Shown here in pieces: positions 556 through 60,830 of a stretch of 64,000 nt of DNA. Location of the stretch: NCBI GenBank assembly GCA_951406725.2, contig OX597830.1, forward strand, positions 57,288,001-57,352,000, read 5' to 3'. The notes under the pieces are model-generated. The model was not told the origin of the DNA and did not search any database. It worked only from the letters and a program-made list of their open reading frames with translations. This DNA comes from Octopus vulgaris (taxonomy: Eukaryota). Both the position numbers and the translations under genes were made by a program. How positions within the stretch are numbered: position 1 is the stretch's first letter; each line of letters opens with the position of its first letter.

Positions 556-690
556 ACTATTTACATTGTTTACATTTGACGGATATTTGTCCTCATCTTG
601 TTTGTTGTTAACACAATGTTTCGGCTGATATACCCTCCAGCCTTCATCAGGTGTCTTGGAGAAATTTCGAACTTGGGTTCTCATTCCTGG
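556..690 (-). mobile_element. 3' half of hammerhead-bearing SINE (family H)
   Basis: Near-identical to 43488-43625 (+) and 56092-56220 (-). Confidence 0.85.
610..655 (-). ncRNA. Minimal type I hammerhead ribozyme
   Basis: Minus strand: GACAC CTGATGA A GGCTG(loop)CAGCC GAAA CATT GTGTT; stem I GACAC/GTGTT, stem II GGCTG/CAGCC. Confidence 0.75.
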
Positions 691-761
691 GGTATTATTT
701 GATGTTATTGTTATTATTATTATTATTATTTTTATTATCATTATTGAATTATTATTGAATT

Positions 762-935
762 TGGAGGACAGCCAGAATAGAAGTAACAGTACTAACCACA
801 AGATTCCGAGTTCAATTCCAGGCAGTGACCTAAACAACGACGTCGGCAGCGGCGGCGGCGAAAAATACCCCAGGAGTGAGAACCCAAGTTCAAAATTTCC
901 CCAAGACACCTAATGAAGGTTGGAGGGTATATCAC
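762..935 (+). mobile_element. Family H SINE: partial tRNA head plus truncated hammerhead
   Basis: B-box-like GAGTTCAATTCC, then GGCAGTGACC and GAGAACCCAAGTTC...GACACCTAATGAAGG; inverted relative to 628-690. Confidence 0.75.
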
Positions 936-1284
936 AATTTTTCCTTGTGGAGAGACACATCACAAATAACCTTTGTAAGATCTGCATTTAGAATTATATG
1001 AGTTACCAGCTATGCACCACTTCCAACTTACAGCCATATGATAATGATCTCTAACTTTGGCACAATGTCACATATTTAGAGAAGAGGTACTGAATGTAGA
1101 AGATTCAAAATTTTAGTCATTTTTAGGATTAATTATTTTGTCAACTTAACAGAGATGAAAGGCAAATTTCCCACCAGGCATGTCATCTCAGAACATTGAA
1201 GTCCTTTACTAAAATACTTCTTCAAACTCTTTTAACCAACCACTCTGCTCTTTCTGTCACTTAGCCATCTCAATAATAACAATA

Positions 1285-1497
1285 ATCCTTTCTACTATAG
1301 GCACTAGGCCTGAAATTTGAGGCAAAGGGGTCAGTCAATTACACCCAGTGCTACTCAACTGGTACTTATTTCACTGACCCCCAAAAGAATGAAAAGCAAA
1401 ATTTTCTTCAGAGGAATTTGAACTCAGAACATAAAGATAGACAAAATGCTGCCAAGCATTTTGCCCAGCATACCTACAAATCTGTCAGCTTGCAACC
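1285..1497 (-). mobile_element. tRNA-derived SINE family B (Nin/Deu-like central domain)
   Basis: ACTGGTACTT...GACCCC...GAATGAAAAGCAAA...GAATTTGAACTCAG, reverse complement of the intact copy at 24664; a more decayed copy lies at ~1050-1265. Confidence 0.8.
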
Positions 1498-1505
1498 TTA
1501 ATAAA

Positions 1506-1561
<56 letters not shown>

Positions 1562-1587
1562 TAATAATAATAATAATAATAATAATG

Positions 1588-2065
1588 CATTCTTTATTAA
1601 CCACAGGGGTTGACAAAAAAGTCAAGGACATTACAGGACGATATATGGAAAAATATTTAAACAAGGGAAATAACAAAATCAAAATAAAGTCTCCAAAACA
1701 AGGGGGAGACTTTTGAGGGCGACTTGTAGAAACCTCCCAAAAGCCACAGTCACCCTGACCACTAAAGGCAAGTATTCTCTCCCAGTTATCCTCCTCCAGT
1801 TTACAGACACAGTCACTCAGACTATGCTCACCTCTCTCATCTACCTTTCAACAGATTTGTCAGTCAACAGCACTTCCCTCTCTGCCCTCATTTTCATTTT
1901 CAAGCTTGAAGAAGTTAAAGACAGCTTGGTCAAAGGGATTTGCAAACCTTTCAATCCAATCCATCACACCTCTTTCACAAAAGCCACCAGATTGATAAAG
2001 ACTACTTGCCCTTCCCATCCAAAGAAAAGGAGCCAGAACACTTTTCAAAATAGACTCAGCTGATA
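1588..2065 (-). mobile_element. L1/Tx1-like LINE 3' fragment
   Basis: Decayed frame FINLVAFVKEV*W...KMKMRAEREVL...ER*, followed by AATAAA and an (ATT)n tail. Confidence 0.5.
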
Positions 2066-2075
2066 ACCAGATCTA

Positions 2076-2114
<39 letters not shown>

Positions 2115-2119
2115 TGCTT

Positions 2120-2287
2120 TTTATTTAGAGATAAGGCCAAAAGTACTAGACTGTTGTTTATTTTCTTGACCCCTCCCCAAGGGTTGAAAGGCAAAGCTGA
2201 CTTCAGCAGGAATTGAAACCAGAATGTAGAGATAGAAGAAATACTGCAAAGCATTTTTCCACCATTCTAATGATTCTGCCAGCTCAT
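2120..2287 (-). mobile_element. SINE family B
   Basis: TTGACCCC...GAAAGGCAAAGCTGAC...GAATTGAAACCAGAA...GATTCTGCCAGCTC. Confidence 0.75.
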
Positions 2288-2503
2288 TGCATTTTTTTCT
2301 TTCTTTCTTTTTCTATGGTAACACAAAGAAGCAAATATGAGAATTGTAAATATATTGGCAAGACTTTAAGGCAGGCAGTGATGAGGAGGAGGAGGAGGGG
2401 CAGCAAGTAAGGAGGAGGGAGAGACATTATGGGTTGTGTGTGTGTTACAGTCAAAGACACAGAACAATTACAAAGATCATAATGCATTCAATGGATAACA
2501 ATA

Positions 2504-2538
<35 letters not shown>

Positions 2539-3329
2539 AAATTCTTACATAAGAATAACAATTAAGGAAGATGATTTGGTATATTCTTAACAATCATGCT
2601 TCTTCTTTGATAGAGAGCCAAGAAACCATCTTGCAAAGGTATATAAACTAAGCATTACACCACAAAGAATAACAACAACAACAATTAAATTATTCTAATA
2701 ATAATCCTTTCATATGCAACCATAAAACCTTCAACAAAGGCATGATGTATTGGACATGTAGAGTTATAATTCTTTCCTAATATAATGATAGGAATTTTAA
2801 TGGGGTTTTTTTGTTTTTTTTCCACAAAGCCACAAAACCTGAGACTTAAAAAAAAGAGAATTGGTAATGAGTTGCAGACTTAGCTCACTAAACAAAAAAT
2901 AATTTTTAAGGTTGGCACAAGGGCAGGAGTTTTGTGGAGTTTGAGGGAAAACAGCAATTAAATTTACTTCAGTTCTTGACTGGTAATTCATCCCGAGATC
3001 CAACCACATTACGCAATTAGCCCATCATAATTATATTTTTGGACATACGGTAGTAAGCAAGGGAAGAAGAATCTATTAATAGTGACCCCACCAAAAAGAA
3101 TTTTGACATATTTTCTCAACTGTAGAAAGATAAATGGCAAGTCACCTAGCCACCCGCAACAAGATTTGAACTGAAGGGATCACACAGATGTAGCCAGATA
3201 TGCCTCGAGGCATTTTCTCCACTCTTCTACAGATGCAATCACAGCAAACCTAACAATGAGAGATTTTCAATCATTATGTTTCAAAGGAAAATGTTATTCA
3301 AAGAAACATGGAAAATATTTAATTATATA

Positions 3330-3494
3330 GGCACAGGTGTGGCTGTGTGGTAAGAAGCTTGCTTCCCAACCACATGGTTCTGGGTTCACTCCCACAGCAT
3401 GACACCTTGGGCAGGTGTCCTCTACTATAACCTCAGGCCGACCAAAGCCTTGAGAGTAAATTTGATAGATGGAGATTGAAAGAAGCAAGTCATG

Positions 3495-3535
<41 letters not shown>

Positions 3536-3539
3536 ATAC

Positions 3540-3590
<51 letters not shown>

Positions 3591-3760
3591 CGTCTATGTT
3601 CCCATAACTTAGCAGTTCAGCAAAAGAGACTGATAGAATAAGTACAACGCTTAAAAATAAGTCCTGGGATCAATTCATTCAACTAAAAATTCTTCAAGGC
3701 AGTGCCCCAGCATGGCCGCAGCCTAATGGCTGAAATAAGTGAAGGAATAAAAGATAAAAG
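3330..3760 (+). mobile_element. SINE family A, full length
   Basis: A-box TGGCTGTGTGG, B-box GGTTCACTCC, CORE-like CCTTGGGCAGGT, internal microsatellite, tail CCCCAGCATGGCCGCAG...AAAAGATAAAAG. Confidence 0.85.
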
Positions 3761-4219
3761 ATGTAGGAGAGATGCATTGAGGAGCCCAGTTTCAGTTTGG
3801 CAGAAGTTGTTGTTATGCTTCTTCATGGTTGAGTAATTTCTTCTGCTTTTTTGAAGAAAATAAAGGTTTCATGTTTATGTATTTCAAATATATCAAAAGC
3901 CCTTTGGAGAGAAACAGTTGTTTGAAAAAATAGTTTTATACAAGAGAATTTATTAGAATCAGTGTAAATTTGATATTGTAATATAAAAATTTGATGCAGG
4001 AACATTATTCATACATATTTGTGTGTGTGAAGAGAGAAGAGGAGAGAGTTTTAATATTCAAAAACAGAAAGTACTTCTGCACATTGGTAAAAAGTCCAGG
4101 GAAATGTAAAATAAAATGATTATAAAACTGCACTATTAATACAGCACAAACAATGGCATTCTAAGAACTTATCTGCACAAGCTAAGAAAAACATTAAATT
4201 AAAATTTCATAGAAAATGT

Positions 4220-4398
4220 GGACAGGAGTGGCTATGTGGTAAGTATCTTGCTTTCCAACCACAGGGTTCCGAGTTCGATCCCACTACATGGCACCTTGGG
4301 CAAGTGTCTTCTATAGCCTTGGGCCAACCAAAGCCTTGTGAGTGGATTTCGTAGACAGAAAGACAGAAACTGAAAGAAGCCCGTTGTATATATGTATA

Positions 4399-4444
<46 letters not shown>

Positions 4445-4490
4445 CCAGCAGCATGGCTGCAGTCAAATGACTGAAACAAATAAAAGAAAA
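4220..4490 (+). mobile_element. SINE family A
   Basis: GGAGTGGCTATGTGGTAAG...GAGTTCGATCCC...CCTTGGGCAAGTG. Confidence 0.85.
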
Positions 4491-4500
4491 GTCATTTTGA

Positions 4501-4705
4501 CCCTTTACCATTCAGACTGATTTCTCAAATATAATCCTTATTTATCCACAGTGTTTTGAATTAATCATGCATAATCTAGCAGCTTTAAGATGTGATTGTT
4601 TATTTTTAGAATGACATTGTAGGTTAGGTGTGAGAGACTGGATCCAGCTGCTTTGAACATAAAGCATATTTGGGCCCAGATATGGCTGGCTTAAATGCAA
4701 AAGGG
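4501..4705. mobile_element. piggyBac-type MITE
   Basis: CCCTTTACCATT...AATGCAAAAGGG termini; homologous to 6337-6552. Confidence 0.7.
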
Positions 4706-5123
4706 TAAATGACTTATGTTTCAGTAAGTTTTATATATATCTATGACATACTGCTCACATATTTATTAAATATTGCAGTCATAACAGCAACATACTATAT
4801 TTGTAGTTATTTCATAATATGGAACTCACAACATAATATTCATGCTCTCAGACATTTTCATTCTGTGGATATGGATATATCATCATCATCATCATATGCC
4901 CATTTTCCATTGTGGCAAACCAGGCTCCAGTTGTCTGTTTTGACATGGTTTCTCTGAGTGGATGCCCTTCCTAATGCCAACCACTTTACAGAGTGGAGTG
5001 GGTGCTTTTTATGTGGTGATGTATGTTTGTTGTTTCTATGTCTCTTTCTCTCTTTTCAAATAAATTTAACAATTGTTTCAGTGGGATTTTGAACAGATAA
5101 AGTATAAAATTCCACTTTATCCA

Positions 5124-5158
<35 letters not shown>

Positions 5159-5161
5159 GTA

Positions 5162-5385
5162 CAGAGTTGGCCAAAAGTCACCCGACAGTAAATCAAAATT
5201 CCATAAATACTATCTGTAGTTCTATATTGACTCGAATGGGAAAATGTGTTGCTCAAGAAGGACTTCAGTTCGAACAATTTTCATGATGTTTCATATTTAG
5301 ATGCTTTTTATTAAATTCATTCAGTTGATAAATCTTGGAATTAAATGGGTTCCATTTACTGCCAGGTGACTTTTGGCCAGCCCTG
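5162..5385 (+). mobile_element. Tc1/mariner-type MITE
   Basis: ~32-bp TIRs CAGAGTTGGCCAAAAGTCACC / GGTGACTTTTGGCCAGCCCTG, TA on both sides; internal KCVAQEGLQFEQ resembles a transposase C-terminus. Confidence 0.8.
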
Positions 5386-5442
5386 TATATGTGTGTGTGT
5401 GTGAGCGAGAGAGAGAGAGAAAGAGAGTTTGTATTGGTTTGT

Positions 5443-5482
<40 letters not shown>

Positions 5483-5811
5483 CATGTGATATTCCTGTCT
5501 GTGGAAGCATGAAGAAGAATATAAAACATGGGGTGTGAAGAACACTGGATATTGTGACAGAAGAAACAAAATGTATTATTTTCAAAGAGAGAAAAGTCAC
5601 TTGAACTATTTTCAGGATTTTAATCAGTAAAAAGTAACATCAAATGCATCAATTTGTGAAAGAAAGGCCATTCTGGAATACGAATTTAAGAAATTATAAA
5701 ACTTGCATATAATTTCATAATTGTTTGTTTTGTGCATAAATAATTCTTCCTTCAAAACAATTGTAAATTAATTTTTTTCTCTTCGATAATTTAAATTACA
5801 TATGTATGTGT

Positions 5812-5852
<41 letters not shown>

Positions 5853-6336
5853 TTCATAAACAATTGGACAAGGCACTGACAGCTCTTGCTAGAATCTAAG
5901 ATGTCTAAAAGTCTGTAGACTTGAAGCGAAAGATATATAATATATTGTGGAAAATGGTGATGATTGATGTTTTATAATATAAGAAAATTATATTTTATTA
6001 GATATGAAAATTATATTTCATTATCATAATTATAGATATCATAATTATAGATATCATAATCATCATCATCATTATTATTATTATTAATATTATGCACCAT
6101 GTTCATTTGTTATTTTATAAAGAAGTTGTAAAGACTAAATAATTCATTCAGCCTTTATAATGAGTGGAATAAACTGATTCAGTCCCTCTTTTGGTTTTGC
6201 CTTTGTCATAAGACCATCATTTCAAAGCTGACTTTATAGCATTTTAGGAACATCGTGCATTGAGCAAAGTGACATTGTAGTTGTTAGTATGGAATGCAAA
6301 GAGCAGATTTGTTATCTTTGAGTCACTATTTCTTAA

Positions 6337-6552
6337 CCCTTTAACATTCAGATTCTTCTGTCAAATTTAATGTCTATTGATTGATATTGTCTTGAATTAG
6401 TCACACATCGTCTTATAGCTGTGAGATTTCGATGCTATGATTGTAAATTTTTAGAACGACATTGCAGGATAGGTGTAAGAGGCCACATCTTGACAGTCAG
6501 AACATAAAACAGAATATTTTGGCCAGATACAGCCTGTTTAAATGTGAAAGGG
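6337..6552. mobile_element. piggyBac-type MITE with TTAA target duplication
   Basis: TTAA-CCCTTTAACATT...AATGTGAAAGGG-TTAA; relatives at ~6855-7075, 33390-33460, 34660-34840. Confidence 0.8.
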
Positions 6553-7504
6553 TTAAGACAAAGCCACAAGTAAACATTAATAATGGAAAAATTAGTCAAT
6601 TAACAAAGACCCACTTCCTGGTATTTCTCAATCTTGGAAAGAAGAAAGGCAACATCAACCCCTTACAAGATTTGAACTTTCAAGATTACAGGGGCATAAC
6701 AAGATACTGCAAGGAATTTTGGTCAACTGTTCTACAGAGTCTATCATGATAATAAAATTAATATTTGAAAGAAATGTGAAAAGAATGTCATCATGAAAGC
6801 TAGTGTGTGTGTGTTTACATATAGGAAGTGTATTTCTTAAAAGACACTTGTGATCCTTTGGCTCTTTTGTATTCAGAACATTCAGGCAAATGTCATGTTT
6901 ATTTGTTTTGAATTAATCAAGCATTGTCTTGTAGCTTCAAGATTTTGATGATGTGATTGTTTATTTTTAGAAGGACATTGTAGGATAGGCGTGAGAGGCT
7001 GAATCAGACCAGTTTGAACATACAACAGGTAGAATAGTTAAGCCGGTTATGGCCAGTTTAAATGCTAAGCAGATTAAACAAAGGAATAAACTGTAAATAC
7101 ATTTAGGTGAAGGATTAGAAGAATGGATTTCAAAAATGTAAGATAAAAAGAGATTCTGAAAACTGCAAATGATTTTGTGAGAAATAAACGAATGGTGGGG
7201 TTGGAGAAAGAGAGAGAGAGAGGGTGTGTGTGTAGCTATACACACTCAAAATGTCAACAATAATTAAGGCCTGAAAATATAAGAAAACTATATCATTTCA
7301 TTAATTACAAAGTAGTGATAAACAAAAAGTTGTTTATGTGAAAAACTTCAAAACATTCCAATTCCATTTTATTTTGTCCAGATTTTCATTGAAATTATTT
7401 AAAAATAATATTAGTTGTGGGGTGTGGTGGTTTAAACAGGAAGAGCCTATACCCCTATACCCAACTTCACTTGCCATTTGCTTTTTATCAAAACCAGGCA
7501 GGTA

Positions 7505-7696
7505 TTCTTTTATTTGTTTCAGTCATTTGACTGGGGCCATGTTGGGGCACTCCCTTGAGTTGAACAGATTGATCCCAGGACTTATTCTTTGTAAGCCTAG
7601 TATTTATTCTATTGGTTCTTTTGCTGAACCGCTAAGTTATGGGGACGTAAACACACCATCAACGGTTGTCAAGCGATGGTGATAGGGACAGACACA

Positions 7697-7732
<36 letters not shown>

Positions 7733-7891
7733 ACAGACTTCTTTCAGTTTCCATCAAACAAATCCTCTCATAAGACTTTGGTTGGCCCAAGGCTATAGTA
7801 GAAGACACTTGCCTAAGGTGCCACACAGTGGGACTGAACTCAGAACTATGTGGTTGGAAAGCAAGCTACTTTCCACACAGCCACTCCTGCA

Positions 7892-7893
<2 letters not shown>
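7505..7893 (-). mobile_element. SINE family A
   Basis: Reverse complement of head, CORE and tail seen at 3330. Confidence 0.85.
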
Positions 7894-7932
<39 letters not shown>

Positions 7933-7959
7933 TTTTGAATTTTATATTTTATATATTTT

Positions 7960-8033
7960 TTTTTTATTTTATTTCTATGTATTGGTTTATGATTTTCACT
8001 GTTTGATTTGCCGAATAGTGGTTTTATCTCTAA

Positions 8034-8040
<7 letters not shown>
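7960..8040 (+). mobile_element. 3' fragment of the hammerhead fold-back family, in (TA)n
   Basis: TGTTTGATTTGCCGAATAGTGGTTTTATCTCTAATTTAATA matches 44287-44327; shorter fragment at ~37820-37850. Confidence 0.75.
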
Positions 8041-22105: not shown

Positions 22106-22381
22106 AAGCTCAAATGGTTTTCCTAATAATAACTATAATAGCAATAGTAATAAAATTTAAAAACATAATTGAAGCTAAGTTTGCTTTTTAAAATGGTGAA
22201 AATAAACTTTCAATATATTTTCTTCAAGAGAAAGATTAGCCAGTATGAATTAATCTAGGCTCCTATATTTAGAATCACAGGTATATTCAGGTGTAAAAGT
22301 TAAAAGTATTTTTTGATTTGGATCAGACCAAAACTAACAAATGTACATACATAAATACATATATATATATATATATATATA

Positions 22382-22926
22382 TGAGGGTGAGTCAAAAAGT
22401 AATACCATTTTGTTTAGGACAGGTATAATTACCAACACGGGAACATGTATCATGCTTCAACATGAAGCTGGTCCTCTGTGGATCACATTGCTACTTCTCA
22501 ACATAGTCACCATTTCTCTCAATAGCAATATTCCACCTTTGAATGAGAGCATGTACCCCTGCCCCGTAAAATTCTATTGACTGTTCTTTGAGCCACTTCT
22601 TCACTACAGTTTTCACTTCCTTGTCACTGGAATAATGCTTGCCTCACAAACCCTCTTTCATGGGGGCAAAGAGATGATAGTCCAGTGATAAGGAAGTGAA
22701 AACTGTAGTGAAGAAGTGGCTCAAAGAACAGTCAACAGAATTTTACGGGGCAGGAATATATGCTTTCATTTGAAGATGGAACATTGCTATTGAGAGAAAC
22801 GGTGACTATGTTGAGAAATAGAGATGTGATCCACAGAGGACCAGCTTCATTTTCATGTATGATACATGTTCCTGTGTTGGTAATTATACCTGTCCTAAAC
22901 AAAATGGCATTACTTTTTCACCCTCA
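22382..22926. mobile_element. Mariner-derived fold-back MITE
   Basis: ~250-bp inverted arms starting TGAGGGTGAGTCAAAAAGTAAT; arms encode transposase C-terminus SSDKEVKTVVKKWLKEQSTEFY...NGDYVEK*; inserted in (TA)n. Confidence 0.9.
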
Positions 22927-22946
22927 TGCATGTATGTATATATATA

Positions 22947-22981
<35 letters not shown>

Positions 22982-36583: not shown

Positions 36584-37230
36584 ATCATCATCATTGTTTA
36601 ACGTCCACTTTCTGCGCTAGCACGGGTTGGACGGTTCGACCGGGGTCTGGGAAGCCAGGGCCTGCACTAGGCTCCAGTCTGATCTGGCAGTATTACTACA
36701 GCTGGATGCCCTTCCTAACGCCAACCACTCCGCAAGTGTAGTGGGTGCTTTTTACGTGCCACCTGCACAGGTGCCAGGGGGGTCTAGCATCGGCCACAAT
36801 CGGTTGGTGCTTTTAACGTGCCACTGGCACGGAAGCCAGCCAAGGCGGCGCTGGCATCGGCCACGTTCGGATGGTGCTTTTTTATGTGCCACCGGCACAG
36901 AAGCCAGTCGAGGCGGCGCTGGCAACGGCCACGTTCGGATGGCACTTTTTATGTGCCACCGGCACAGAAGCCAGTCGAGGCGGCGCTGGCATCGGCCGCG
37001 TTCGGATGGTGCTTTTTATGTGCCACCGGCACAGAAGCCAGTCGAGGCGGCGCTGGCATCGGCCGCGTTCGGATGGTGCTTTTTATGTGCCACCGGCACA
37101 GAAGCCAGTCGAGGCGGCGCTGGCAACGGCCACGTTCAGATGGTGCTTTTTATGTGCCACCGGCACAGGTATCAAAACTACTATTTCCATTGATATTTGC
37201 ACTTGACTCAACAGGTCTCCTCAAGCACAG
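36584..37230 (-). mobile_element. Repeat family C, young, with expanded 67-bp minisatellite
   Basis: Family C ends; GTGCCAC-initiated units at 36756, 36818, 36886, 36953, 37020, 37087, 37154. Confidence 0.9.
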
Positions 37231-39996: not shown

Positions 39997-40685
39997 AGCT
40001 TGCTTCTCAACCACATGGTTACAGGTTCAGTCCCACTGCATGGCACCTTGGGCAAATGTCTTTTACTGTCACTCTGGGCCAACCAAAGACTGTGAGTGGA
40101 TTTGGCAGACATAAACTTGAAGACTGTACAAAGGTGTGTGTGCATGTGTGTGTGTGTGTGTGTGTGTGCATTTGTCTCCTGCTCCCCACTACTTGACATC
40201 ATCATCATCATCATTTAATGTCTGCGTTCCATGTTGGCATGGGTTGGATAGTTTGACTGAGGACTAGCAAGGTAGGCAGCTGCACCAGGCTCCAATCTGA
40301 TCTGACAGAGTTTCTACAGCTGGATGCCCTTCCTAACACCAAGCACTCCAAGAGTGTAGTGGGTGCCTTTTATGTCCCACTGGCACTGGAGCCAGTCAGG
40401 TGGCACTGGAACCAGCCAGGTGGCACTGGCATCAACTATGCTCGAACGGTGCTTTTCATGTGCCACTGGCACTGGAGCCAGTCAGGTGGCACTGGCATCA
40501 ACTACGCTCGAACGGTGCTTTTTATGTGCCACTGGCACTGGAGCCAGTCATTTGTTTGCATTCCCGTAACTTAGCGGTTCAGGAAAAGAAACCAACAGAA
40601 TAAATAAACGACTTAAAAATAGAAAGTGTTGGAGTCAACTTACTCGACAAAAACTCTTCGAGGCAGTGCCCCAGCATGGCCAGAG
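39997..40685 (+). mobile_element. SINE family A with nested family C element (40197-40549)
   Basis: A body stops at ACTTGACA and resumes TTTGTTTGCATTCCCGTAACTTAGCGG after the C insert. Confidence 0.8.
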
Positions 40686-43451: not shown

Positions 43452-43488
<37 letters not shown>

Positions 43489-43527
43489 TACTTTAGGAAT
43501 GAGAACCCAGGTTCAAAATTTCTCCAA

Positions 43528-43573
43528 GACACCTGATGAAGGTTGAAGAGTATATCTGCCGAAACGTTGTGTT
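43528..43573 (+). ncRNA. Minimal type I hammerhead ribozyme (family H copy 43488-43625)
   Basis: GACAC CTGATGA A GGTTG...CTGCC GAAA CGTT GTGTT, with ACGT palindrome in place of stem III. Confidence 0.75.
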
Positions 43574-43914
43574 AACAACAAACAAGATGAGGACAAATAT
43601 CAGTCAAATGTAAATAATGTAAATACTGTTTGGTTGTGGTAAACTGGGGCTCTGTACCAGGCACCATTCCAATTTGGTTTGTTTTCTATGGCTGGATGCC
43701 CTTCCTAATGTCAACCACTCTACACAATGTACTGGATACCTTTTAAGGGTCACCGGCACTGGCCACAACTATGATTTCACTTAGCTTGACGTGTCTCCTC
43801 AAGCACAACAAATCACCAAAGGTCTTCATCACTATACATATTCACAAACATAGATATATATCCATATGTACATATATTCTTACATATATATTCATACTTA
43901 TTACACAGATACAA

Positions 43915-43959
<45 letters not shown>

Positions 43960-43967
<8 letters not shown>

Positions 43968-44415
43968 TAAATTAGAGACAAAACCACTATTAGGCAAATC
44001 AAACAATGAAAGACTTAAGCCAATACATAAATTAATTTATATTATTTAAATATGTAACAATTATTAAAAAAATATAATTAATATCCGCTACGTCTTGATT
44101 CAAAATTAGTTCATTGTTTAAAACTCGCCAAGAAAAATTTTGAAACACCTGATGAATGACTGCGACCTAAAAATTTGATGACAGCAGCCAGGAAACGATC
44201 GTAGTGGATATTAATTATATTTTTTTAATAATTGTTACATATTTAAATAATATAAATCAATTTATGTATTGGCTTAAGTCTTTCATTGTTTGATTTGCCT
44301 AATAGTGGTTTTGTCTCTAATTTAATATAATATAATATTTTACTATAAAATTGGATTCAATCCTAAATCTGATTTTTCCCTGTAAGTTTGGATTTATTCC
44401 CTAATATTTATTATT
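43960..44415 (+). mobile_element. Penelope-type terminal fragment with inverted partial copy, in (TA)n
   Basis: ~133-bp inverted repeat 43960-44092 / 44200-44333 around a hammerhead; 3' extension homologous to 59745-59810. Confidence 0.8.
44146..44206 (+). ncRNA. Type I hammerhead ribozyme
   Basis: CAC CTGATGA A TGACTGC...GCAGCCA G GAAA CGATCG TA GTG; palindromic stem III ACGATCGT, GUA cleavage triplet ending 44203. Confidence 0.8.
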
Positions 44416-45930: not shown

Positions 45931-47129
45931 TTTTAATCTAATGCTGTTTCAAGTGTGACCACCTTCTTCACAAATCAGTGAATGTGTCCTTTCCTTATCC
46001 CTATAATGCATAGGTTCACTAAGTGGTTGCTACTGCCCCCGTTGGACATTGAGAGGGCCCAGGTGGGCAGTAGAGAAAAAGGAGGAATTGGGAGGAAGGC
46101 AGTGGATTAGGAAACACTATGAATTTATAATATTATAGTATTGCATACAAATCATATGATATTATATTGAATATCAAATGATTCATAGTGTATATATATA
46201 TAAATTAGTAAAATATAAAATATTTATACATAAAATTAGGGGTTAGGGTGCTGGGTGTATCATATAACCATGAGGGGGCGGTGGCCCAAAAAGTTTGAGA
46301 ACCTCTGCTGTAACGGAACAAAAGTTCTAATTTAACTCAAAAGTAACCAGGAGTGTCAGTCACTGAAGAGATGAAATTAAACATAAACACCAGTGTCTGA
46401 TGGTCTGCTGACATCTGTCTGAGCAAGCTGTGTTTTAAAGAGAACTTTCTCTCAGGCAAAATATTACAGCTAGTACTGTTCTACATTTGATATACACTGA
46501 TATATATATACATCATTCATACACATTCCTTTTGTTGACGGGTTCATCAAAAAAAAAATCACTCAATACATTTTAGAATGATATTTCATACACAATATCT
46601 ACAATATTTATTGACAACAGCTTATCATGTTTCCAAGGAGGATATCGAACTAGGCTTGTGTCATGACTGTCACTCTTCATTTCATTTGTTGCTTGTTTTG
46701 TTCAAAGCTTCAAGTTGTTTTTGGTTGTCATACGTGGTTCCAGGAGAAAATGTGATTTGGAAGTGAATTTTTGTTTGGAAGGTGCAACAACTCAGAAGCA
46801 GCTAAACATAAGTAGTGCCCCTTGGACCATCATTACTAAATTGACAATTTTGCTCTGTAATAAAAATTTTTTTTTAAATTTAAACTTATATACTTCAGTG
46901 TCTAAAACATTTATTTACAATTTTATGTTGGTGCATGTCTTGTCCAAGGCAAAAGATATGTCTAAAAGAATTTGATAAGAAATACATAAAGGAGTTGATA
47001 TAGTCAATACATTGATTCTACATGTACATGGAGTGTAAATAATGGGAATTTAGAACTGAGAAAGAAATATTTGCTTGAGAGGATCCCCAAATTGGAGTGC
47101 TATTAATTTGGTGTAGATGGTATTTTCCA

Positions 47130-47760
47130 ATGGGACAGTATGAATAAATCCTCATTCGTACATCTGGTAAATATCTTCTCCCTTGAATTTAAATAATTAT
47201 TGGAGTTCTTTGATTTAAACAGATTGTGTGTTCTCTCTGCAATACACAGATTGCATCTCTTCAATCCAATTGTGTATGGGTTTGCTCATTCAAGGCCCCT
47301 CTATTTGGTGCAGTAATTGATGCTATGGTCTCCCAGTTTTCAGACATAGGACATAGATTGTGAACACCATGGAATTTCTTTTGTCAATGTGTTTGAGTGA
47401 TGACTACTAATTATAAAATCTTTCCTTGAGTTCACCTTCACATGTACCAATGCACCTTCTCTTATTGATTTATGTTAACTAAGGTCGTCTGAGTTACTCT
47501 TACTTTTTTGGAGACCAAGAACAACAATCTTTACTGATAATCATTTATGAAAACACCTGATGCTTACACAATTAGCAAGTTATAAGGAAACTGCAATATG
47601 ACACTGAAACTTTGTCAAACCTGCAGGTAAACTATTTGCAAGACTTTGGTCTTGTACAAGAGAGATGTCCACCATGCTACAGCCAAACTAGGCACTGGTT
47701 CCTTGTTTATAACCGCACCTACCAAGGCAATTACAGCTTAGTTAAAGAATTACTGATGAG
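47130..47760 (-). mobile_element. Naiad-like Penelope element remnant (GIY-YIG endonuclease region)
   Basis: Decayed frames KVSVSYCS, CIGTCEGELKERFYN**SSLKHIDKRNS...YVLCLK, PYTIGLKRCNLCIAER...YLNSREKIFTRC. Confidence 0.8.
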
Positions 47761-52683: not shown

Positions 52684-55330
52684 TTGGCCACCACTGCCAC
52701 CAAGCCACCCATCATACCAACACCAACGCCATTTCTACTAATGAATATAAGAGGCTTGCTGCAGAACAGCAGTAAATGCAAAATTGAGCACCTGAAGAAT
52801 CTTTCTGCATGTAATCAAGCTATATGCATTGCACTTACAGAAACACATCTATCTGCAGACATAAATGATGCGGAGATACCCCATACCAATGTATGCTGTC
52901 TTCTGTACAGACAGAAGAAAAAGATGTCACTGTGGAGTTGCAATGTACATCCGAGAAGATGTCACACCATTAACCCTGTTATTGAACTGGAACACGGTGT
53001 GTGACACACTCATGGTACATCTAAAGCAACTTGATATAGTGATATGCACACTATATTGCCCACCTGATGCCTCAAATCATGATGGAAAATTTGAGGAAAG
53101 CCTCAGTGTGATAAAGGAAGTACTAACACAATTGGATCAACATATTCCAGATGGGTGACTTCAACTTCCCCAACATCAGGTGTCCTGAGGGCAATATAAC
53201 CCCACGAATGACACACTAAGAGCGAAATCAAGCAGAATCTCTACTTGATCTTACAAAAATGCTATTCATGGAGCAGATCATCCTCTCTCCAACCAGGCAC
53301 AAAAATATCCTGGACCTCTGTTTTACAAACAATGTGGAAATTATCCACAATGTAAATATATCACTGACAATATTCTCAAACCATAACATGATAGAACTGA
53401 CAATGTATGGCCCAGAATTAACTAAAGATAAACTCCACACAGATGGCACTCAAACCCTATCCAGCCTAAATTTCTATAAGGCTGACTGGAAGTCACTTGA
53501 AAAACAGAAACTTTAGCAGGACAGGCCTAAAAGCCTCTCTATGCAAGACATAGATATGAAACTCAATTAATTCATATCAATAATGCAAGCCATATGCATT
53601 AAATACATCCGAGAGAAGGGAGCCAATACACAAAAAAACATCATTCCCCAAGACAGGAGAATACTCATGCAGCGGAGAATAAAGATCTCGAATCATTTCA
53701 ACAAACACATCAATGACAGTGGGAAATCCCAGCTGACAGAGATGGAAAATAAACTCAAAATCTCCCATGGAAAAAAAAGAGAGGAAAATCCTAAAGCTTT
53801 CTACATGTTGGCAAAGGAGTCTGCCTCAGTATGCTATAAGATAGGGCCACTATTTGGCAAAAATGGCTCACTAAATGCAGACCCAGGGAAGATAAGTGAA
53901 GCACTAAATAAACAATTCCAAAGTGTTTTCACTTTTTCCCTCTGGAAAATATGCAAATAAACAAGCCGAAGGAGTTTTTCAATGTAATTAATCTATTTCG
54001 AAAAGAGGCAACCATCGATTACATCAACATAACAGAAGAGGATGTAATATTGGCCATTGATGAGATGAGATCGAACTCAGCAACAGGCCCAGATGGACAC
54101 CCAGCTGTTCAACAAGGTGGGAGAGTGCTGCATGATTTTCCAAAGGGCAGGAGTCAGACAGCTCTAGCCAATGATGCTCACTCTAAAGAGGAACCAATTC
54201 TCAGTGAAGTCCCACAAAGAGCTGTACTGGGACCACTACTATTTGTGGTGGCCCCCTCAGACATGCCATCTACAGTACAGTCAGCCAATCTGACCAGTTA
54301 TGCTAATGACACCAAAGTATTGCAGGCAGTTAGGAACCCAGAGGACACCATAAAACTGCAGAAAGACCTGAACGAAATATACAAATGGGCTTACAAAAAT
54401 AACATGCAGTTCAAGGCTATGAAATTTCAGGCACTCCACTATTGGTCAAACATCAGGCTAAAATCGGAATACAGTGGACCAGAAGGTAATACTATCCCAG
54501 AGTCAAAGTCGGTGCATAACCTGAGGGTTCACATGAGCAATGATGCAACATTCCATGTGCATATTACCAAGATGGCAACACTGTGCAGGCGAGTGGCTGG
54601 ACGGATTCTGAGGACATTCAAGAACCAGGAAAAGGGAGGGGCCCTGCTACCCCTACGGAGTACTTTTGTTCTCAGCTGCCTGGACTACTGCTCTCAACTA
54701 TGGTCCTCAGAGAGAGTGAAACAAATTGTGGAACTCGAAGCAATACACAAAGAAGATTGACACGATGCAAAAGATGAGCTACTGGGAGAGGCTAAGGGAG
54801 CTGAGTCTTTATTTCTGGGAGAGGCTAAGGGAGCTGAGTCTTTATTTCTGGGAGAGGCTAAGGGAGCTGAGTCTTTATTTCTGGGAGAGGCTAAGGGAGC
54901 TGAGTCTTTATTTCTGGGAGAGGCTAAGGGAGCTGAGTCTTTATTTCTGGGAGAGGCTAAGGGAGCTGAGTCTTTATTTCCTGGAGAGAAGAAGAGAGAG
55001 ATATGCAGTGATATATATATTTGGAAGATCTTAGAGGGTTTAGCTCCCAATTTTGGAATTGACAGCTATACCAATCCTCAAACTAGACAGCACTGCTTCA
55101 CACCAAAGATCCCATCTTCCCCATCTAAAATAAGGACTCAGTACTGAAATAGTCTGGGTTTCGAGGGCCTGCAATTGTTCAACATCCTTCTAGGCAACCT
55201 TAGAGATCTACATGGTATTGATGTGGAAGTTTTCTGGACAGGTTTCTCTCTGTGGTACCAGATGAACCCACATCACGGCAGGAGACGCAAAGAAGTGTAA
55301 CTCCATCCAGAAACCGGAAACCATACCAAA
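52684..55330 (+). mobile_element. CR1/L2-clade LINE ORF2 (APE endonuclease + RT), frameshifted, RT internally deleted
   Basis: MNIRGL, ALTETHL, GVAMYI, GDFNFP, PTR.KNILDL, NFYKADW, VPQRAVLGPLLF, YANDTK, LQKDL..IYKWA, LDYCSQLWS. Confidence 0.9.
54782..54979 (+). repeat. Perfect 33-bp tandem repeat x6 inside the LINE
   Basis: CTGGGAGAGGCTAAGGGAGCTGAGTCTTTATTT, encoding WERLRELSLYF. Confidence 0.95.
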
Positions 55331-55472
55331 TAACTACAGGTGGTGCACCAGCATGACCTCAGCTCTGGGCTGAAACCAGTAAAAAATAAACGATACATAT
55401 ATATAGGAGTGTGTGTATATATGTGTGTGTTTGTGTGTGTGTGTGTGTGTGTGCACACACACACACACACAC

Positions 55473-55503
<31 letters not shown>

Positions 55504-56091
55504 TTACACACATATATATTAGTAACTGGGGCAGTGATGGATTCATCCTTATCATTTAATGGCCATTTTCCCGGATGGCATGGGTTCAATGGTCTGACAG
55601 GAGCTACCAAACCAGAGAGCTGCACCAGGCTCCAATTGTCTGTTTTGGCATGATTTCTATGGCTGGATGCCCTTCCTAATGCCAACCACTTTACAGAGTG
55701 GACTGAGTGCTTCTAATCTAACACCATCACCACCAGAGCTTTATTCATGGCACCGGCACAGATATGAACTTACAAACAGTCAGACCAAAATGCTAAAAAT
55801 GATTGTAATATAAAAGAGTAGACACAAAAAAAAAAAAAATCAATAAAGAACTCTTAAATATTTCTGTATAATGAGCAGATGTCTCAGGGTCACAAGCATT
55901 TCACCCCTTAGCCTGTAGCTTCACCTGAGTGGCACAGCAAGGCCTGAACTAGTCTTAACCTATAGAAGGGTTTCATTTACAGTCTCTTCTCAAAAACAGC
56001 CATCTATTTAAATGTATCAGATGTGTAAGTCCATTCTGATGTAATAAAAGTCTTGTTTTTCAATAAAAATAATTTAATAATTTAATTATTT

Positions 56092-56315
56092 GCATTATTT
56101 ACATTTGATGGATATTTGTCCTCATCTTGTTTGTTGTTAACACAACATTTCGGCTGATTTACCCTCCAGCCTTCATCAGGTGTCTTGGGGAAATTGCGAA
56201 CCTAGGTTCTCATTCCTATGGTATTTTTCAATGATATTATTATTATGGTCACTGCCTGGAATCAAACTCGGAATCTTGGGGTTAGTAGCCCACTCTTAAC
56301 AATGCCATATGCCCA
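56092..56315 (-). mobile_element. Family H SINE, near full length: tRNA-like head + hammerhead
   Basis: Minus strand GGCATATGGC...GTTAAGAG.GGGCTACTAACCCCAAGATTCCGAGTTTGATTCCAGGCAGTGACC, (AAT)n spacer, then hammerhead. Confidence 0.85.
56139..56184 (-). ncRNA. Minimal type I hammerhead ribozyme
   Basis: GACAC CTGATGA A GGCTG...CAGCC GAAA TGTT GTGTT. Confidence 0.75.
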
Positions 56316-57244
56316 TGAGCACATGGCGTAGTGATGAACTTTCTTATCAAACTCAGTCGTGAATTTGCCAGCAAAGAACAAAATAATTTTTTTACAGTGA
56401 CAAATGTATCAGGTTCTTATAAATATTCAACTTGATTTTCTTTGCTATTTTGAAAATACAGGAATCTATTTTTTAATTCTAAAGTAAATTTATACTTTTG
56501 CCTTGGTAGTGTTTTTAAAGTTGGGAAACAAAATGTATCAGTGGAATATTTCTGTAATTCTCAGGATACAGGGCAGACATTGAGACATTCTTCACTTTTT
56601 TGGCACATCGTAAACAGTTAAGTAACACCATTTAAAACAGCTTGCTGCACTTGCGCGCTGACAATTAATAAACCATGCACCTCTCCACAAAACAAACATT
56701 GGTTACTTTTGTATTTGTATAAAAACATTGCTGAAAAATGCTTTCCCAGTCATAAAACAACAATCAAAACTAAATTATCAGAAATTATATATAGTAGTGG
56801 TGTTATAGAAAAAAGATGTTTCACACATCTAGACATAGCTTAACCGTAGTTAAATAAAGACTGGTGAACAATTAATAGAATAGATTTGCCAGGAATATGG
56901 CTCATGTGAATCCAAGTAGACTAGTCATTAGTAAATGTGATAGTACTGTTAAAATTTTTTTTTAATTCATTGTTGCCAGTATGGAAGGCAGACATTAAAT
57001 GGTAATGATGGTGATGAATATTTAAAAGCAAGACAGAATCTTAGAACGTTTTCTTGTTAGAAATTATTTTAGTCTAAGCAATTTATGGAATGGTATACCC
57101 ATCCCACCACCAAATCTGACAATTTTCTTGCAACTTCTCAAAGATGTTGCAATATTTCCCTCTGAGAGATACTGCAGAAACATCCAGCTCCCCAGGGTAT
57201 CTTTACAAACACTCCCACCTTACCACAACTCATGCAACAAGAGA

Positions 57245-57465
57245 TAGTTTCTGCTGGTAACAAAGGGGTTCTCCCTCAGAATGATGGGCAGATTGTATGA
57301 AGCGACTGAGTCAAATGAGACGGTACATTGCAAGGAGGCATGGGTCTTGAATGCAAAGGATCTGAGAAGATGAGAAGGAAATGAAGTGAGCCTGCTTTGC
57401 AGGACGGGCAAAACTGGTGTGCATGAACAACTGAACAAATAAGTGGAGGCAAAAACTAAATCATA
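57245..57465 (+). mobile_element. RTE-clade LINE fragment
   Basis: LLVTKGFSLRMMGRLYEA...EAWVLNAKDLRR*EGNE.SLL. Confidence 0.7.
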
Positions 57466-57494
57466 AAATGATGCAGGTGTGTTATTAATATTTC

Positions 57495-58307
57495 TAGAGG
57501 GTTGTTATTGAAAATATCAACATTAGCAGATAATTTAGATAATCTAAATGAAATATTCTTTACTAAGTTTTTAGTAATTGCTCCAGGATGATTACTAAAT
57601 TTGCTAATGTACTTAAGATTGGTCAACGGTTTACGATATGGGAGGTAAGAGTCACTGTGTAAATTAAGTGTAATATCTAAAAAGTTGGCCTTCGTCATAT
57701 CGTCATCAAAAACGATTTTTAAGCCCATTCTACTGAAAAAATTAACTAAACTATTCTTAACTTTTTGTACCTTTTGGTTGGAAACATTTTGGAGGTAAAG
57801 TAAACAATCATCATGATATAGACCTCCATAAATGTTAGGGAACTCTTCAGCCATTTCAAAAAGAATATATATACAGACCACATCAGCTATCTGTGCTGAA
57901 TCAGCACTTCCCATTGGTATATCGAAACTATCTGGTGTGTCTTTACGGACCCACAACTTATCATCAAATTTAATAATAGATCTTCTGGCTGCCAACACAA
58001 CATTAATTTCTTCTCGGGTGAGACCAGCTTTGTTATGAGCAAGCCAAAGTGCCTTATTAAGTACTATTGGATTGATAGATGAATAAAAATTGGAAATATC
58101 AAACTGGATAAACTTAGTACTCACCTTATTGTTAATAGAACTAAACCAGTCAACTACTTCAAACGAATTAGTCCATAAACTAAGTTTTAATGTTTTGATT
58201 AAATTAGGAATATATTTATCTAGTATATTTTTACTAAGGATACCGATGTCAGAGCTAGAAGGGCAGATAAGCCTTAATGATGGGTTAGTAAAAAAATTTC
58301 TATCCAT
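57495..58307 (-). mobile_element. Naiad-like Penelope reverse transcriptase (inverted segment)
   Basis: RLICPSSSDIG, W.NS..V.DWF, FDISNFYSSI, FDIPMGS.D.A, GLYHDD, NFLDITLNL, PYRKP, YISKFSNHP. Confidence 0.9.
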
Positions 58308-58577
58308 TACTCAACATTTAGGGATAGAAATAAATGGAATAGTACCGGTCTCAGCAAACTGATTTGGGATTTAAAAGACCACAATGAACAATTTCATTTA
58401 GAATGGTTGATTCTCTCAATTTCGATACCATATGACAAAGGCAAGAAATTCTGTCTTCTCTGCAATTCTGAGCTATTTTTCATTATTTTTTCTAAAAATA
58501 CTCTAGTAAACACAGTTATAGAGCGAGCATACAGATGTAAGCATTGACAAAAACATACATTTAGTGCATATAAGTAG
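58305..58577 (+). mobile_element. Naiad-like GIY-YIG endonuclease C-terminus (not in ORF track)
   Basis: HYSTFRDRNKWNSTGLSKLIWDLKD...W.IL....PYDKGKKFCLLCNSE...RCKH*QKH...*. Confidence 0.85.
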
Positions 58578-58778
58578 TCTCTATCATTATATATAATTTA
58601 AACTTTAATTTCCTTTATATTTAACATTCACTATTAATATCCCTACTCTTTCTGTTAGCTACTTATGACGTTATATCATATAACGTTTTTTTAAACAATA
58701 TTAATAGCGTTCAGTTAATCACTATACAAATCCATCATTTTTTGCTAAAATATCTTATTGACGAGTTTCGTTTTTTTC

Positions 58779-58862
58779 ACTTTCTTGAGGAGAAGATTGC
58801 ATTGTTTATACCATTTATTCTTTTGAATAGTATCAGTGGAATTTTCGAAACGTGTCGAAAGT
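58779..58862 (+). ncRNA. Type I hammerhead ribozyme in the Penelope 3' terminal region (C3U variant)
   Basis: ACTTTC TTGAGGA GAAGATT...AATTTTC GAAA CGTG TC GAAAGT; long stem II, GUC ending 58856. Confidence 0.7.
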
Positions 58863-58901
58863 AAAAATATTTGATTACACCTGCGTTAACTTCATTTTTT
58901 A

Positions 58902-58961
<60 letters not shown>

Positions 58962-59097
58962 AAACATAATCTAATAGGGTAATAAAATAAATTATTATTA
59001 CCAGTGGCCTAGCACAAAAGACGAATTAGTCATTAGACTATATATTTTTCGTATAGAAATATAATAAACAGTCTGTGCATCTAGGATTATGAAGGCT

Positions 59098-59174
59098 TCC
59101 CACTGAAGACCCTGGCCTGGCAAATATATTCTGTGTGTTTGCTAAAAAATAGGTAGAAACCGTTCGGTCTGGGA
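59098..59174 (+). ncRNA. Type I hammerhead ribozyme
   Basis: TCCCA CTGAAGA C CCT...AGG TA GAAA CCG TT CGG TC TGGGA; GUC ends 59169. Confidence 0.85.
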
Positions 59175-59535
59175 TTTAGCTGAGATGGTAAATGTTTTTA
59201 ATTTTCATTCCTTTCATGAATTTATCCATTTTTGTGTTTCTAACACTACGCTTCCTTATTTGGAAGCCTTTTATTATATTTCTATACAAAAAATATATAG
59301 TCTAATGACTAATTCGTCGTTTGTGCTAGGCCACTGGAAATAGTAATTTATTTTATTACCCTATTTGATTATGTTTAAATATTGCTTGATAAATTTGTTC
59401 GTAAATTTTTACCGGCATCCTCTCTGTTCGCCGGGTATGATTTGCGTCTGCGCAGAGGTTTGAAAAGTTAGGATATACAAACCGTTAGATCTATATGTGC
59501 TTCTAACAGTCTGTGTGTCCAGGATTACGAAGGCT

Positions 59536-59611
59536 TCCCACTGAAGACCCTGGCCTGGCAAATATATTCTGTGTGTTTGCTAAAAGGAGGTAGAAACCGT
59601 TCGGTCTGGGA
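59536..59611 (+). ncRNA. Type I hammerhead ribozyme (second tandem copy)
   Basis: Same motif as 59098-59174; GUC ends 59606. Confidence 0.85.
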
Positions 59612-59739
59612 TTTAGCTGAGATGGTAAATGTTTTTAATTTTCATTCCTTTCATGAATTTATCCATTTTTGTGTTTCTAGCACTACGCTTCTTTATTTGG
59701 AAGCCTTTTATTATATTATATATATGTATATATACATAA

Positions 59740-60830
59740 TATTAATAATAATAGTAAGGGAATATAATTCCAAACTTACAGGGAAAAACTCAATTTAGCA
59801 ATTCTAAATCAAATTTCATGATATATAATATATGTATATAATTTAGAGAAATAACCTCTATTAAGCAATTCAATAGTGAAAGACATTATCAATATTAAAT
59901 AGAAAAAATTAAATATACTATAATAAATATTATTTAAAAAATCAATAAATTAAATAAATACGCCCTATTGGGCAGTTTTTAAGCTAGCTCCTATGGAGGG
60001 CTCTTCATTAAGCCTTGGGCCCAACAATGACACTTTATGCATTGAGTACATATTAAATTTTATTAAACTTGAACAATATTTTTCAAGCAATGAACAATTT
60101 TCATCAAAACAAGGATATAATTTGTCAACTTGGAACTTATTGTAAAGCTTCATGATAAACAACATATTTTGTCGTCCCATTCGAGGAACAGTACAAATAG
60201 CTCATTTTCATTCCCTACCCTTGAACAACCAACTGGCAACAATAAACTTACCTTTTAAAAGTCCAACGATAATTCTTCTGCCACCATTAATTTAAAGATA
60301 ATTTGATATATGTCGGGCCTTACTTTTCGTACAAACAATTATTTGTAGTATCTGGTACATATCTAAACCCCTGCTCATAGTTTGATGGAAAATTACACCA
60401 CTGTCGCTAAAAACTATTTTAAAGTGCGATTCTTATGGTTTGGAATTACTCTAAATGTATTTGACCATAAAGATGTTTGAAATTTCATATTTTTTAGTAT
60501 TTTTTTAAGGTAATAACAAATTTAGTCAAATCTATTTTCATGCAGTCAGAGTGTGCTAAGTTTCTATAGCTCTGACAGCCAATGGCTTGAAAACAGGTCT
60601 GCCAAATTTTTTTAATATCTGAAAAAATACTAAGTTTCCAACATTCTTATGGTAGAGAGTTGTGAAAAGTAATATTGTATGAGAGAGTGAGTTCAATATG
60701 TATTTCAGTTCCAAACATTATGGTTAAATTACTTGATACAGTTATAATATTTAGAGAAAGATTCTTTCAAAATGTTTATTTAGGAAATTACTTTTGGAAA
60801 TATTTATAATATTTAGATAAATATTTTTTT
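59740..60830 (-). mobile_element. Longer, older relative of the 43960-44415 element
   Basis: AGGGAATATAATTCCAAACTTACAGGGAAAAA and TTAGAGAAATAACCTCTATTAAGCAATTCAA match its 3' end; right boundary uncertain. Confidence 0.55.

Follow-up and report, generated by a model that had tools for sequence, protein, structure and literature searches.

Hammerhead sites and repeat families in the window

We analysed a 64-kb window (positions 57288001-57352000 of contig OX597830.1) of the Octopus vulgaris genome (2.80 Gb in 227 contigs), which holds seven motifs resembling the type I hammerhead ribozyme (HHR) along with remnants of Penelope-like elements (PLEs), and read copies of the same repeat families elsewhere in the genome. 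All seven motifs claimed by a first-pass annotation were located, none more than ~40 nt from the position it gave, with C3 of the core at 650(-), 43533(+), 44149(+), 56179(-), 58785(+), 59103(+) and 59541(+). The CUGANGA core was exact at six of the seven sites, alongside GAAA and UH elements; site 58785 carries a C3U change relative to its family majority CTGAGGA, and helix III is broken at site 650. An exact-core HHR descriptor gave four matches in the window compared with a mean of 0.1 (maximum 2) in 60 dinucleotide shuffles, and 11 compared with a shuffle mean of 2.8 (maximum 7) when one mismatch was allowed. The structural descriptor recovered five of the seven sites, those at 650 and 59541 being recognised by eye, and Rfam returned no match to the window at gathering score; of its 203 weak matches 150 were listed, none of them to a hammerhead family. 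Across a 400-kb genome sample (40 evenly placed 10-kb stretches) the descriptor matched 24 times, in many families.

As annotated, the sites fall into four unrelated sequence contexts, here called families A (650, 43533, 56179), B (44149), C (58785) and D (59103, 59541). Stems I and II and a short palindromic helix III are present in all four (ACGU in A, ACGAUCGU in B, ACAUGUGU in C and ACCG-UU-CGGU in D); the latter is a trait of minimal hammerheads of the PLE type, believed to work as dimers and to be poor cleavers (PMC4209133). The families had all been taken as non-coding, which holds for A, B and D but not for C, the 3' end of a coding PLE. Inverted partial copies, reported beside most sites, are present at annotated positions 610, 44146, 58779 and 59098/59536, absent at 43528 and reduced to a short head fold-back at 56139. 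Of the two kinds of flank described, (TA)n does flank B, C and D, but (AAT)n lies inside family A, where it forms a linker; the ends of inserts lay in (TA)n at 27/30 loci for B, 25/30 for D, 30/30 for C and 1/30 for A.

Each family has two alternative 3' ends, referred to below as short and long (~245-256 and 281-283 in A, 234 and 310 in B, ~338-358 and 434 in D, and ~157 nt apart in C). Family A is represented in the window by a short-ended arm at 558..727(-) (C3 650, N17 615, helix III damaged) and the second, head-to-head arm of the same insertion at 790..934(+), which comprises the 3' part of a head resembling transfer RNA (tRNA), the linker and the body to stem II, with a mutated core; by a short-ended copy at 43455..43629(+) that is 5'-truncated within the (AAT)n linker and has no inverted arm (C3 43533, N17 43568); and by a short-ended copy at 56076..56313(-) with a whole tRNA-like head (~56313-56245; C3 56179, N17 56144) and a head fold-back stub just past 56313. 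A full unit of family B with a long 3' end (76-nt tail) followed by (TA)n occupies 44105..44414(+) (C3 44149, N17 44203), and its short-ended inverted arm lies within (TA)n at 43953..44092(-). Family C is present as an inverted internal segment carrying the reverse transcriptase (RT) core at 57501..58299(-) and as a direct arm at 58289..58906(+) with the end of the endonuclease, the 3' untranslated region (UTR), the HHR (C3U 58785, N17 58856) and a short 3' end, followed by (TA)n at 58905-58961; a single insertion accounts for both the annotated 57.5 kb PLE remnant, its inverted RT, and the 58779 site, its 3' end. A long-ended inverted arm of family D (58963..59068, -) is followed by a partial tandem at 59067..59717(+), composed of unit positions 127-434 and then 1-339 (short end), with two HHRs (C3 59103 and 59541) 437-438 nt apart. 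At 59745..59942(-) lies a 3' tail of the B group that is older, has 75-77% identity to B and lacks the HHR part, and families C, D and this tail adjoin within one run of TA tracts (58289-59942). The hammerhead system had been drawn as far as 60830; 59930-60830 belongs to an unrelated non-coding repeat without an HHR core. This repeat E (59930-61000, -; a ~1.1-kb non-coding family of 1040 candidates at ~83% identity, with short palindromes at its end) was ruled out as an HHR element on the lack of both an HHR core and a PLE frame.

Family A is a ~280-nt non-coding element consisting of a ~75-nt head, an (AAT)n linker, a ~55-nt spacer, a minimal HHR and a ~95-nt 3' part. Genome-wide there are at least 3324 candidates, a 25-nt pattern from the head has 2165 exact matches, and the six insertions in the 400-kb sample correspond to ~42,000 copies (95% range 15,000-91,000). 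The head, which the first-pass annotation had not noted, contains an A box, TGGCGTAGTGG, and a B-box-like GTTCGATTC, and aligns best to the genome's own tRNA-Arg genes (z 7.1-8.0, among 27 distinct tRNAs of six isotypes), the isotype being tentative. Fold-back junctions are centred on the tRNA +1 position, and the element contains no T4 run (longest T run 3), as expected for an RNA polymerase III (Pol III) transcript. The marks of a tRNA-derived short interspersed element (SINE), namely a 5' head with A and B boxes, non-coding sequence, interspersed high copy number and target-site duplications (TSDs), were all found; a 3' tail derived from a long interspersed element (LINE), or one made of poly(A) or a repeat, is absent, and the 3' part is formed by the HHR and a PLE-type tail with two ends. 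Copies are monomeric or head-to-head, and helix III is a palindrome of 2 bp. LINE-like sequence is inserted in the (AAT)n linker at loci L390, L391, L393, L409 and L410. In the working reference of the family an open stretch of ~55 codons passes through the HHR and tail (for instance at window 43500-43629), either by chance or possibly as the beginning of a parent PLE open reading frame (ORF). Family A sequence also occurs in assembled contigs of sequencing runs labelled with three organism codes.

Family B (at least 1359 candidates) is a 310-nt unit, found as monomeric copies, with its 5' end fixed at TTCAT, 45 nt before the core; family B2 (1122 candidates) has the same tail and the TTCAT start with another stem II and loop. 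No shared sequence was found upstream of either (30 + 30 loci). In the core of eight B-group HHR variants N7 is variable and G8 differs in a single copy; loop 2 changes, 89.8% of stem cells are paired (15-60% when slid), GC, GU and AU all occur at one position of helix III, and one pair has changed on both sides. Judged from sequence, the fold appears conserved and so is likely still functional, either in dimer cleavage or in protein recognition. Family D (at least 1307 candidates) is a ~435-nt unit of 35% GC in which a 160-nt body of its own separates the tail from the HHR, and forms head-to-tail partial tandems of up to ~1.9 units with one HHR each. Copies of B and D are mostly 95-100% identical to the majority sequence of their own family. 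In both B (window 44339-44414) and D the main short and long ends are ~76 nt apart; the tails themselves are not significantly alike.

The two PLE remnants, at 47.1 and 57.5 kb, had been annotated as Naiad-like. Naiads have an N-terminal GIY-YIG endonuclease, a DKA motif and no canonical HHR, and elements of the Hydra clade have a C-terminal endonuclease, RWK, DKT and CxxC/CxH motifs, a CxCx5C linker, (TA)n targets and HHRs (Craig et al. 2021, PMC8557442). Both remnants are classed as Hydra-clade PLEs with a C-terminal endonuclease and not as Naiads, because in relatives of the 57.5 kb remnant the RT precedes GIY-YIG, the motif is DKT and an HHR is present, and because the ORF of relatives of the 47.1 kb remnant stops after the endonuclease. 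In family C (a first look gave at least 2515 candidates, ~97% identical to the copy in the window; copies extend up to 1.5 kb) RT and then GIY-YIG lie in a single frame (646 aa in L141), with IRWL and SDKT upstream, CLLC and CKH at the frame end and no CCHH; a Pfam scan of this ORF gave no families. The C-terminal GIY-YIG with CxxC and CxH, the lack of CCHH, DKT, the (TA)n target and the HHR are all as in the Hydra clade, RWL takes the place of RWK, and the CxCx5C linker is absent. On these motifs family C is classed as a divergent Hydra-type PLE. The 47.1 kb remnant (47106..47460, -), the C-terminal part of a GIY-YIG endonuclease with CxxC, E and N motifs, is old, with five DNA matches in the genome. 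A protein search with it gave 5253 candidates; at the 30 loci read, the ORF ends just past the endonuclease and is accompanied by decayed HHRs of these elements' own, and four of the 30 have the CxCx5C linker.

The insertion footprint

In head-to-head two-armed inserts, one arm has the long 3' end and the other the short one: this end rule was followed by 22/22 inserts of A, 16/17 of B, 12/13 of D and 9/9 of the autonomous family C. To guard against selection, an independent set of family A loci was taken as the first 40 head-anchored loci on C1 from the 2165 exact matches. Thirty had an HHR body within 600 nt, 20 of these inserts were two-armed, and 18 of the 20 combined a long with a short end, one exception being a DNA-level palindrome. 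Over both sets the rule covers 40/42 family A inserts. Junctions of two-armed family A inserts vary from copy to copy, and every integrated copy spans the scissile bond.

Duplications of at least 6 bp flanked 15/22 two-armed family A inserts (null mean 0.9), and those of at least 7 bp 9/20 (null mean 0.14). The targets of this family are unique AT-rich sites, and the duplications are mostly 7-14 bp long. The first-pass annotation had regarded LINE-type TSDs and tails, in place of a Penelope-type structure, as an argument against a PLE system; that argument does not apply here, the duplications surrounding two-armed inserts of Penelope type like those of the rotifer element (PMC3846280). Two-armed family A was also considered as a miniature inverted-repeat transposable element (MITE) and ruled out, given that junctions differ per copy and the ends are unequal.

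The annotation's proposal is partly borne out: A, B and D are non-coding, carry HHRs and show a PLE insertion footprint that matches that of an autonomous PLE, family C, in the same genome. The footprint is also that of PLEs studied elsewhere. Penelope of the rotifer Adineta vaga has inverted pseudo-long terminal repeats (pLTRs), a 31-bp tail on one of them, a TSD of 8-10 bp, a palindromic junction and mobilisation in trans (PMC3846280). The purified protein of the Anolis PLE PAc nicks and extends both strands, two internal RT start sites bound the tail, and HHR cleavage is unneeded for insertion in vitro (PMC11167929). Because of this match, the RNAs of A, B and D are probably substrates of a PLE protein, and each two-armed insertion would use both reverse-transcription start sites.

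Autonomous elements and the search for a partner

Potential partner elements were sought by four routes (DNA of the 47.1 kb remnant, its protein, Pfam GIY-YIG and a Nematis-like endonuclease), and 160 PLE loci were examined: 30 old Hydra, 30 family C, 30 + 20 + 20 from the GIY-YIG search and 30 Nematis-like. The routes led to Hydra, at least five Neptune groups and a single Nematis-like group, and every end that was read lies in (TA)n; none of the GIY-YIG loci read has an N-terminal endonuclease. Upstream of A, B, B2 and D, eight PLE protein matches were seen in 7/120 loci, and the five read (all but L085 and L313) are separate insertions.

A young ~4.8-kb Neptune PLE (L238-L249) has an upstream ORF, a 781-aa RT/endonuclease frame that is open in many copies and matches GIY-YIG and RVT_1 in Pfam, a 40-nt tail and (TA)n targets. 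Full-length copies rule out family B as the 3' end of this 781-aa Neptune family. At L231:2328-2605 a long-ended B arm is joined by fold-back to a 5'-truncated Neptune with no TA spacer, which is possibly a mixed-template insertion and, seen in one case, a lone hint of a partner. A paired core variant of the HHR, with U3 and A8 replacing C3 and G8, occurs in young Neptune and several non-coding families (3' ends of L239-L249, L265, L266, L267 and L282). The Nematis-like PLEs (L348-L377), a large and older group of 5613 candidates, have two 3' ends and a 3' UTR that is long and of low complexity.

Elsewhere in the window, inverted repeat arms of 289 nt, 43 nt apart and beside TA tracts, form a MITE-like structure at 22346-22966. 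Related GC-rich minisatellites of 66-67 nt lie at 36744-37168 and 40401-40550, and a decayed region read as LINE-like extends over 52700-55300, with a 33-nt tandem repeat at 54782-54988.

Mobilisation, alternatives and relation to known systems

We consider A, B and D to be non-autonomous passengers of a PLE RT/endonuclease, family A being a Pol III SINE moved by a PLE and not by a LINE, with a probability of roughly 0.8. Transcription of family A would start from its internal A and B boxes, consistent with 5' ends at tRNA +1 and the absence of a T4 terminator inside; that of B may begin at the fixed TTCAT start, possibly an initiator, and that of D would arise by read-through from an upstream partial unit. 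A PLE protein would then bind the region of HHR and tail, with the template presumably uncleaved, since integrated copies span the scissile bond. By the chemistry seen with one PLE in vitro, both target strands would be nicked, reverse transcription would proceed from two internal sites, one per strand, leaving one long and one short end, and the two cDNAs would be joined head to head. Families B and D insert in (TA)n, as do the Hydra, Neptune and Nematis-like PLEs of this genome, and the unique AT-rich targets of A with their duplications of mostly 7-14 bp suggest a Penelope/Poseidon-type partner.

Several observations weigh against this reading. No autonomous element with a 3' end shared with A, B or D was found among the 160 PLE loci, nor any Penelope/Poseidon-type element among the PLE loci found by the four routes. 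Pairwise 3'-end similarity was significant in only one of 21 comparisons (B with B2), after which the motif likeness among B, C and D tails was not significant either. ARAGORN detected no tRNA in 20/20 family A loci and the Rfam tRNA model missed the one head tested, so that the head must be called degenerate and its isotype tentative. A quarter of heads in the independent set (10/40) lack an HHR body within 600 nt; another repeat is inserted in the linker of seven, and three are unexplained. Family A has U at N17, the HHRs of A, B and B2 are predicted not to fold as monomeric hammerheads (z -0.35, 0.47 and 0.56), and the covariation score of the eight B-group HHRs, few as these sequences are, did not exceed the shuffle control (125/500).

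How far other explanations account for the same data differs between families. For D, and perhaps others, the RNA intermediate may be that of a strict non-LTR retrozyme, in which a tandem transcript self-cleaves to a ~437-nt monomer that circularises and serves as template for the PLE RT; this would change the intermediate and not the partner, and we regard it as possible though doubtful. The head-to-tail units of D with one HHR each, its 35% GC and its cleavage-to-cleavage monomer (~437 nt), predicted to fold better than 100/100 shuffles (z -3.4), all fit such a cycle, mollusc retrozymes of 350-390 nt do make circles (PMC7229834), and elsewhere in this genome (L258:3082-4600; C1, 20.0 Mb) seven identical HHRs 353-359 nt apart form a tandem, retrozyme-like array, with a second group on the other strand. 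Against it, D reaches ~1.9 units at most in 30/30 loci and none of the 30 has a 5' junction at the cleavage site, partial tandems are formed by autonomous PLEs of this genome too, and A and B are monomers. Families B and D could alternatively be solo pLTRs of unsampled autonomous PLEs, reverse transcription starting at the upstream pLTR/tail junction of a full-length mRNA and copying back to its start, which would give a fixed 5' end. Priming in vitro does map to the pLTR-ORF junction (PMC11167929), rotifers have solo pLTRs (PMC3846280), B consists of exactly a start, an HHR and a tail, and each DNA search scored 40 of more than 1100 candidates. This origin is nevertheless unlikely, given that 0/60 B and B2 loci continue in shared sequence upstream or past the long end whereas C copies extend up to 1.5 kb, that D carries its own 160-nt body, and that no examined PLE locus ends in B or D sequence.

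The tRNA head, the (AAT)n tract and the target duplications of family A would suit a tRNA-SINE of the ordinary, LINE-driven kind that at some point acquired the 3' end of a PLE, with inversions arising through LINE twin priming or DNA-level palindromes; (AAT)n-associated LINEs exist in the genome, and the three of 40 heads with neither a body nor an obvious later insertion agree with this. In LINE twin priming a single 3' end is retained, and the inverted portion is internal. Both outer ends of A inserts, by contrast, are 3' ends; they are discordant in 40/42 cases, junctions differ between copies, and the 3' end has no poly(A) or repeat tail. The end rule largely refutes a LINE-driven origin, which we rate as very improbable. 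Equally remote is a supply of the machinery by Naiads: Octopus is among the hosts listed for Naiad families, which target (TA)n (PMC8557442), but the window remnants are of the Hydra clade, no N-terminal endonuclease appeared among the GIY-YIG loci read, and cephalopod Naiads are described as long inactive, at odds with the 95-100% identity of most B and D copies.

Each of the components has a known precedent: hammerheads in PLEs, a Hydra family in Octopus, non-autonomous PLEs, mollusc retrozymes, and elements with a tRNA promoter and an HHR in schistosomes. An HHR-bearing Hydra PLE is in itself ordinary. Family C and the 47.1 kb remnant share with Hydra-clade PLEs the C-terminal GIY-YIG, DKT, CxxC and CxH around E/N, the absence of CCHH, the (TA)n target and the 3' HHR, and family C is unlike them in RWL, the missing linker, a long stem II and its ~157-nt tail; Hydra-1_Obim, a Hydra-type PLE, is listed with an HHR, as family C has, though a different one (PMC8557442). 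Hammerheads have also been counted in the giant squid, with 235 Rfam hits (PMC6962438).

Metazoan non-LTR retrozymes (Cervera and de la Pena 2020, PMC7229834) are non-coding, low in GC and built of few-hundred-nt units with a type I HHR. Family D comes closest to them, and on its sequence is close to a retrozyme; they are defined, however, by dimer-to-multimer arrays, canonical HHRs and circular RNA, whereas D has less than two units in 30 loci and A and B are not tandem. PLEs have been proposed as a 'strong candidate' for the retrozyme partner from co-occurrence, shared HHRs and tandem habit only, and the accessible parts of that paper offer no PLE insertion footprint (PMC7229834), which is the addition made here. 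Among non-autonomous PLEs, MRC1 and its relatives in Chlamydomonas and the non-autonomous Penelope of Heliconius (PMC6685494) are short and PLE-dependent. MRC1 types form pLTRs and tandems and generally share 3' sequence with an autonomous family, unlike A, B and D, which have no such partner in the 160 PLE loci; a small-RNA head such as that of A is not described for MRC1 or the Heliconius elements in the portions available (PMC6685494).

SINEs are defined as parasites of LINEs (PMC5786205). In the literature searched, no SINE has been assigned a PLE partner, and neither a tRNA-SINE with the insertion footprint of a PLE nor an octopus HHR-SINE is described; Repbase, Dfam and SINEBase lay outside this comparison, so a database description is possible. 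Ohshima and Okada (1994) reportedly described the octopus tRNA-SINEs OK, OR1 and OR2, with tRNA-Arg-related heads. OR1 is a CORE-SINE (PMC4824008); family A may be identical to OK or OR2. We put at about even odds that family A is an undescribed kind of SINE, in which a tRNA-derived Pol III head is fused to a Penelope pLTR (HHR and tail) and has been amplified by a PLE to tens of thousands of copies, the first pairing of a SINE with a PLE. A tRNA-headed element with Penelope insertion anatomy would extend SINE partnership to a second retrotransposon class. The end rule, found in an autonomous PLE and three non-coding families of one genome, is direct genomic evidence on the mobiliser of animal HHR repeats, and offers a cheap, sequence-only test of PLE dependence applicable to Sm-alpha and to every animal retrozyme. 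The pairing with a PLE can be tried in vitro with the open 781-aa frames that young copies of Neptune provide.

The two closest parallels to family A lie in different systems. Sm-alpha and Sj-alpha of schistosomes (PMC6765202, PMC2770079) likewise join a tRNA-related Pol III promoter to a type I HHR and number tens of thousands of copies; for Sm-alpha, tandem arrays are described that an active HHR cuts into monomers, and the parts available name no partner. Copies of A, in contrast, stand alone or head to head, the palindrome of their helix III is 2 bp long, and their two ends, tail and TSD are those of PLE anatomy. Penelope/Poseidon pLTRs (PMC3846280, PMC11167929) have head-to-head arms, a palindromic junction, a 30-40 nt tail on one arm, an 8-10 bp TSD and mobilisation in trans, all of which A matches; those cases are coding elements or captured genes, whereas A is tRNA-headed and of high copy number. 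Family A is Sm-alpha-like in its parts and like a Penelope pLTR in its insertion, and departs from SINEs in lacking a LINE tail and from retrozymes in lacking tandem structure.

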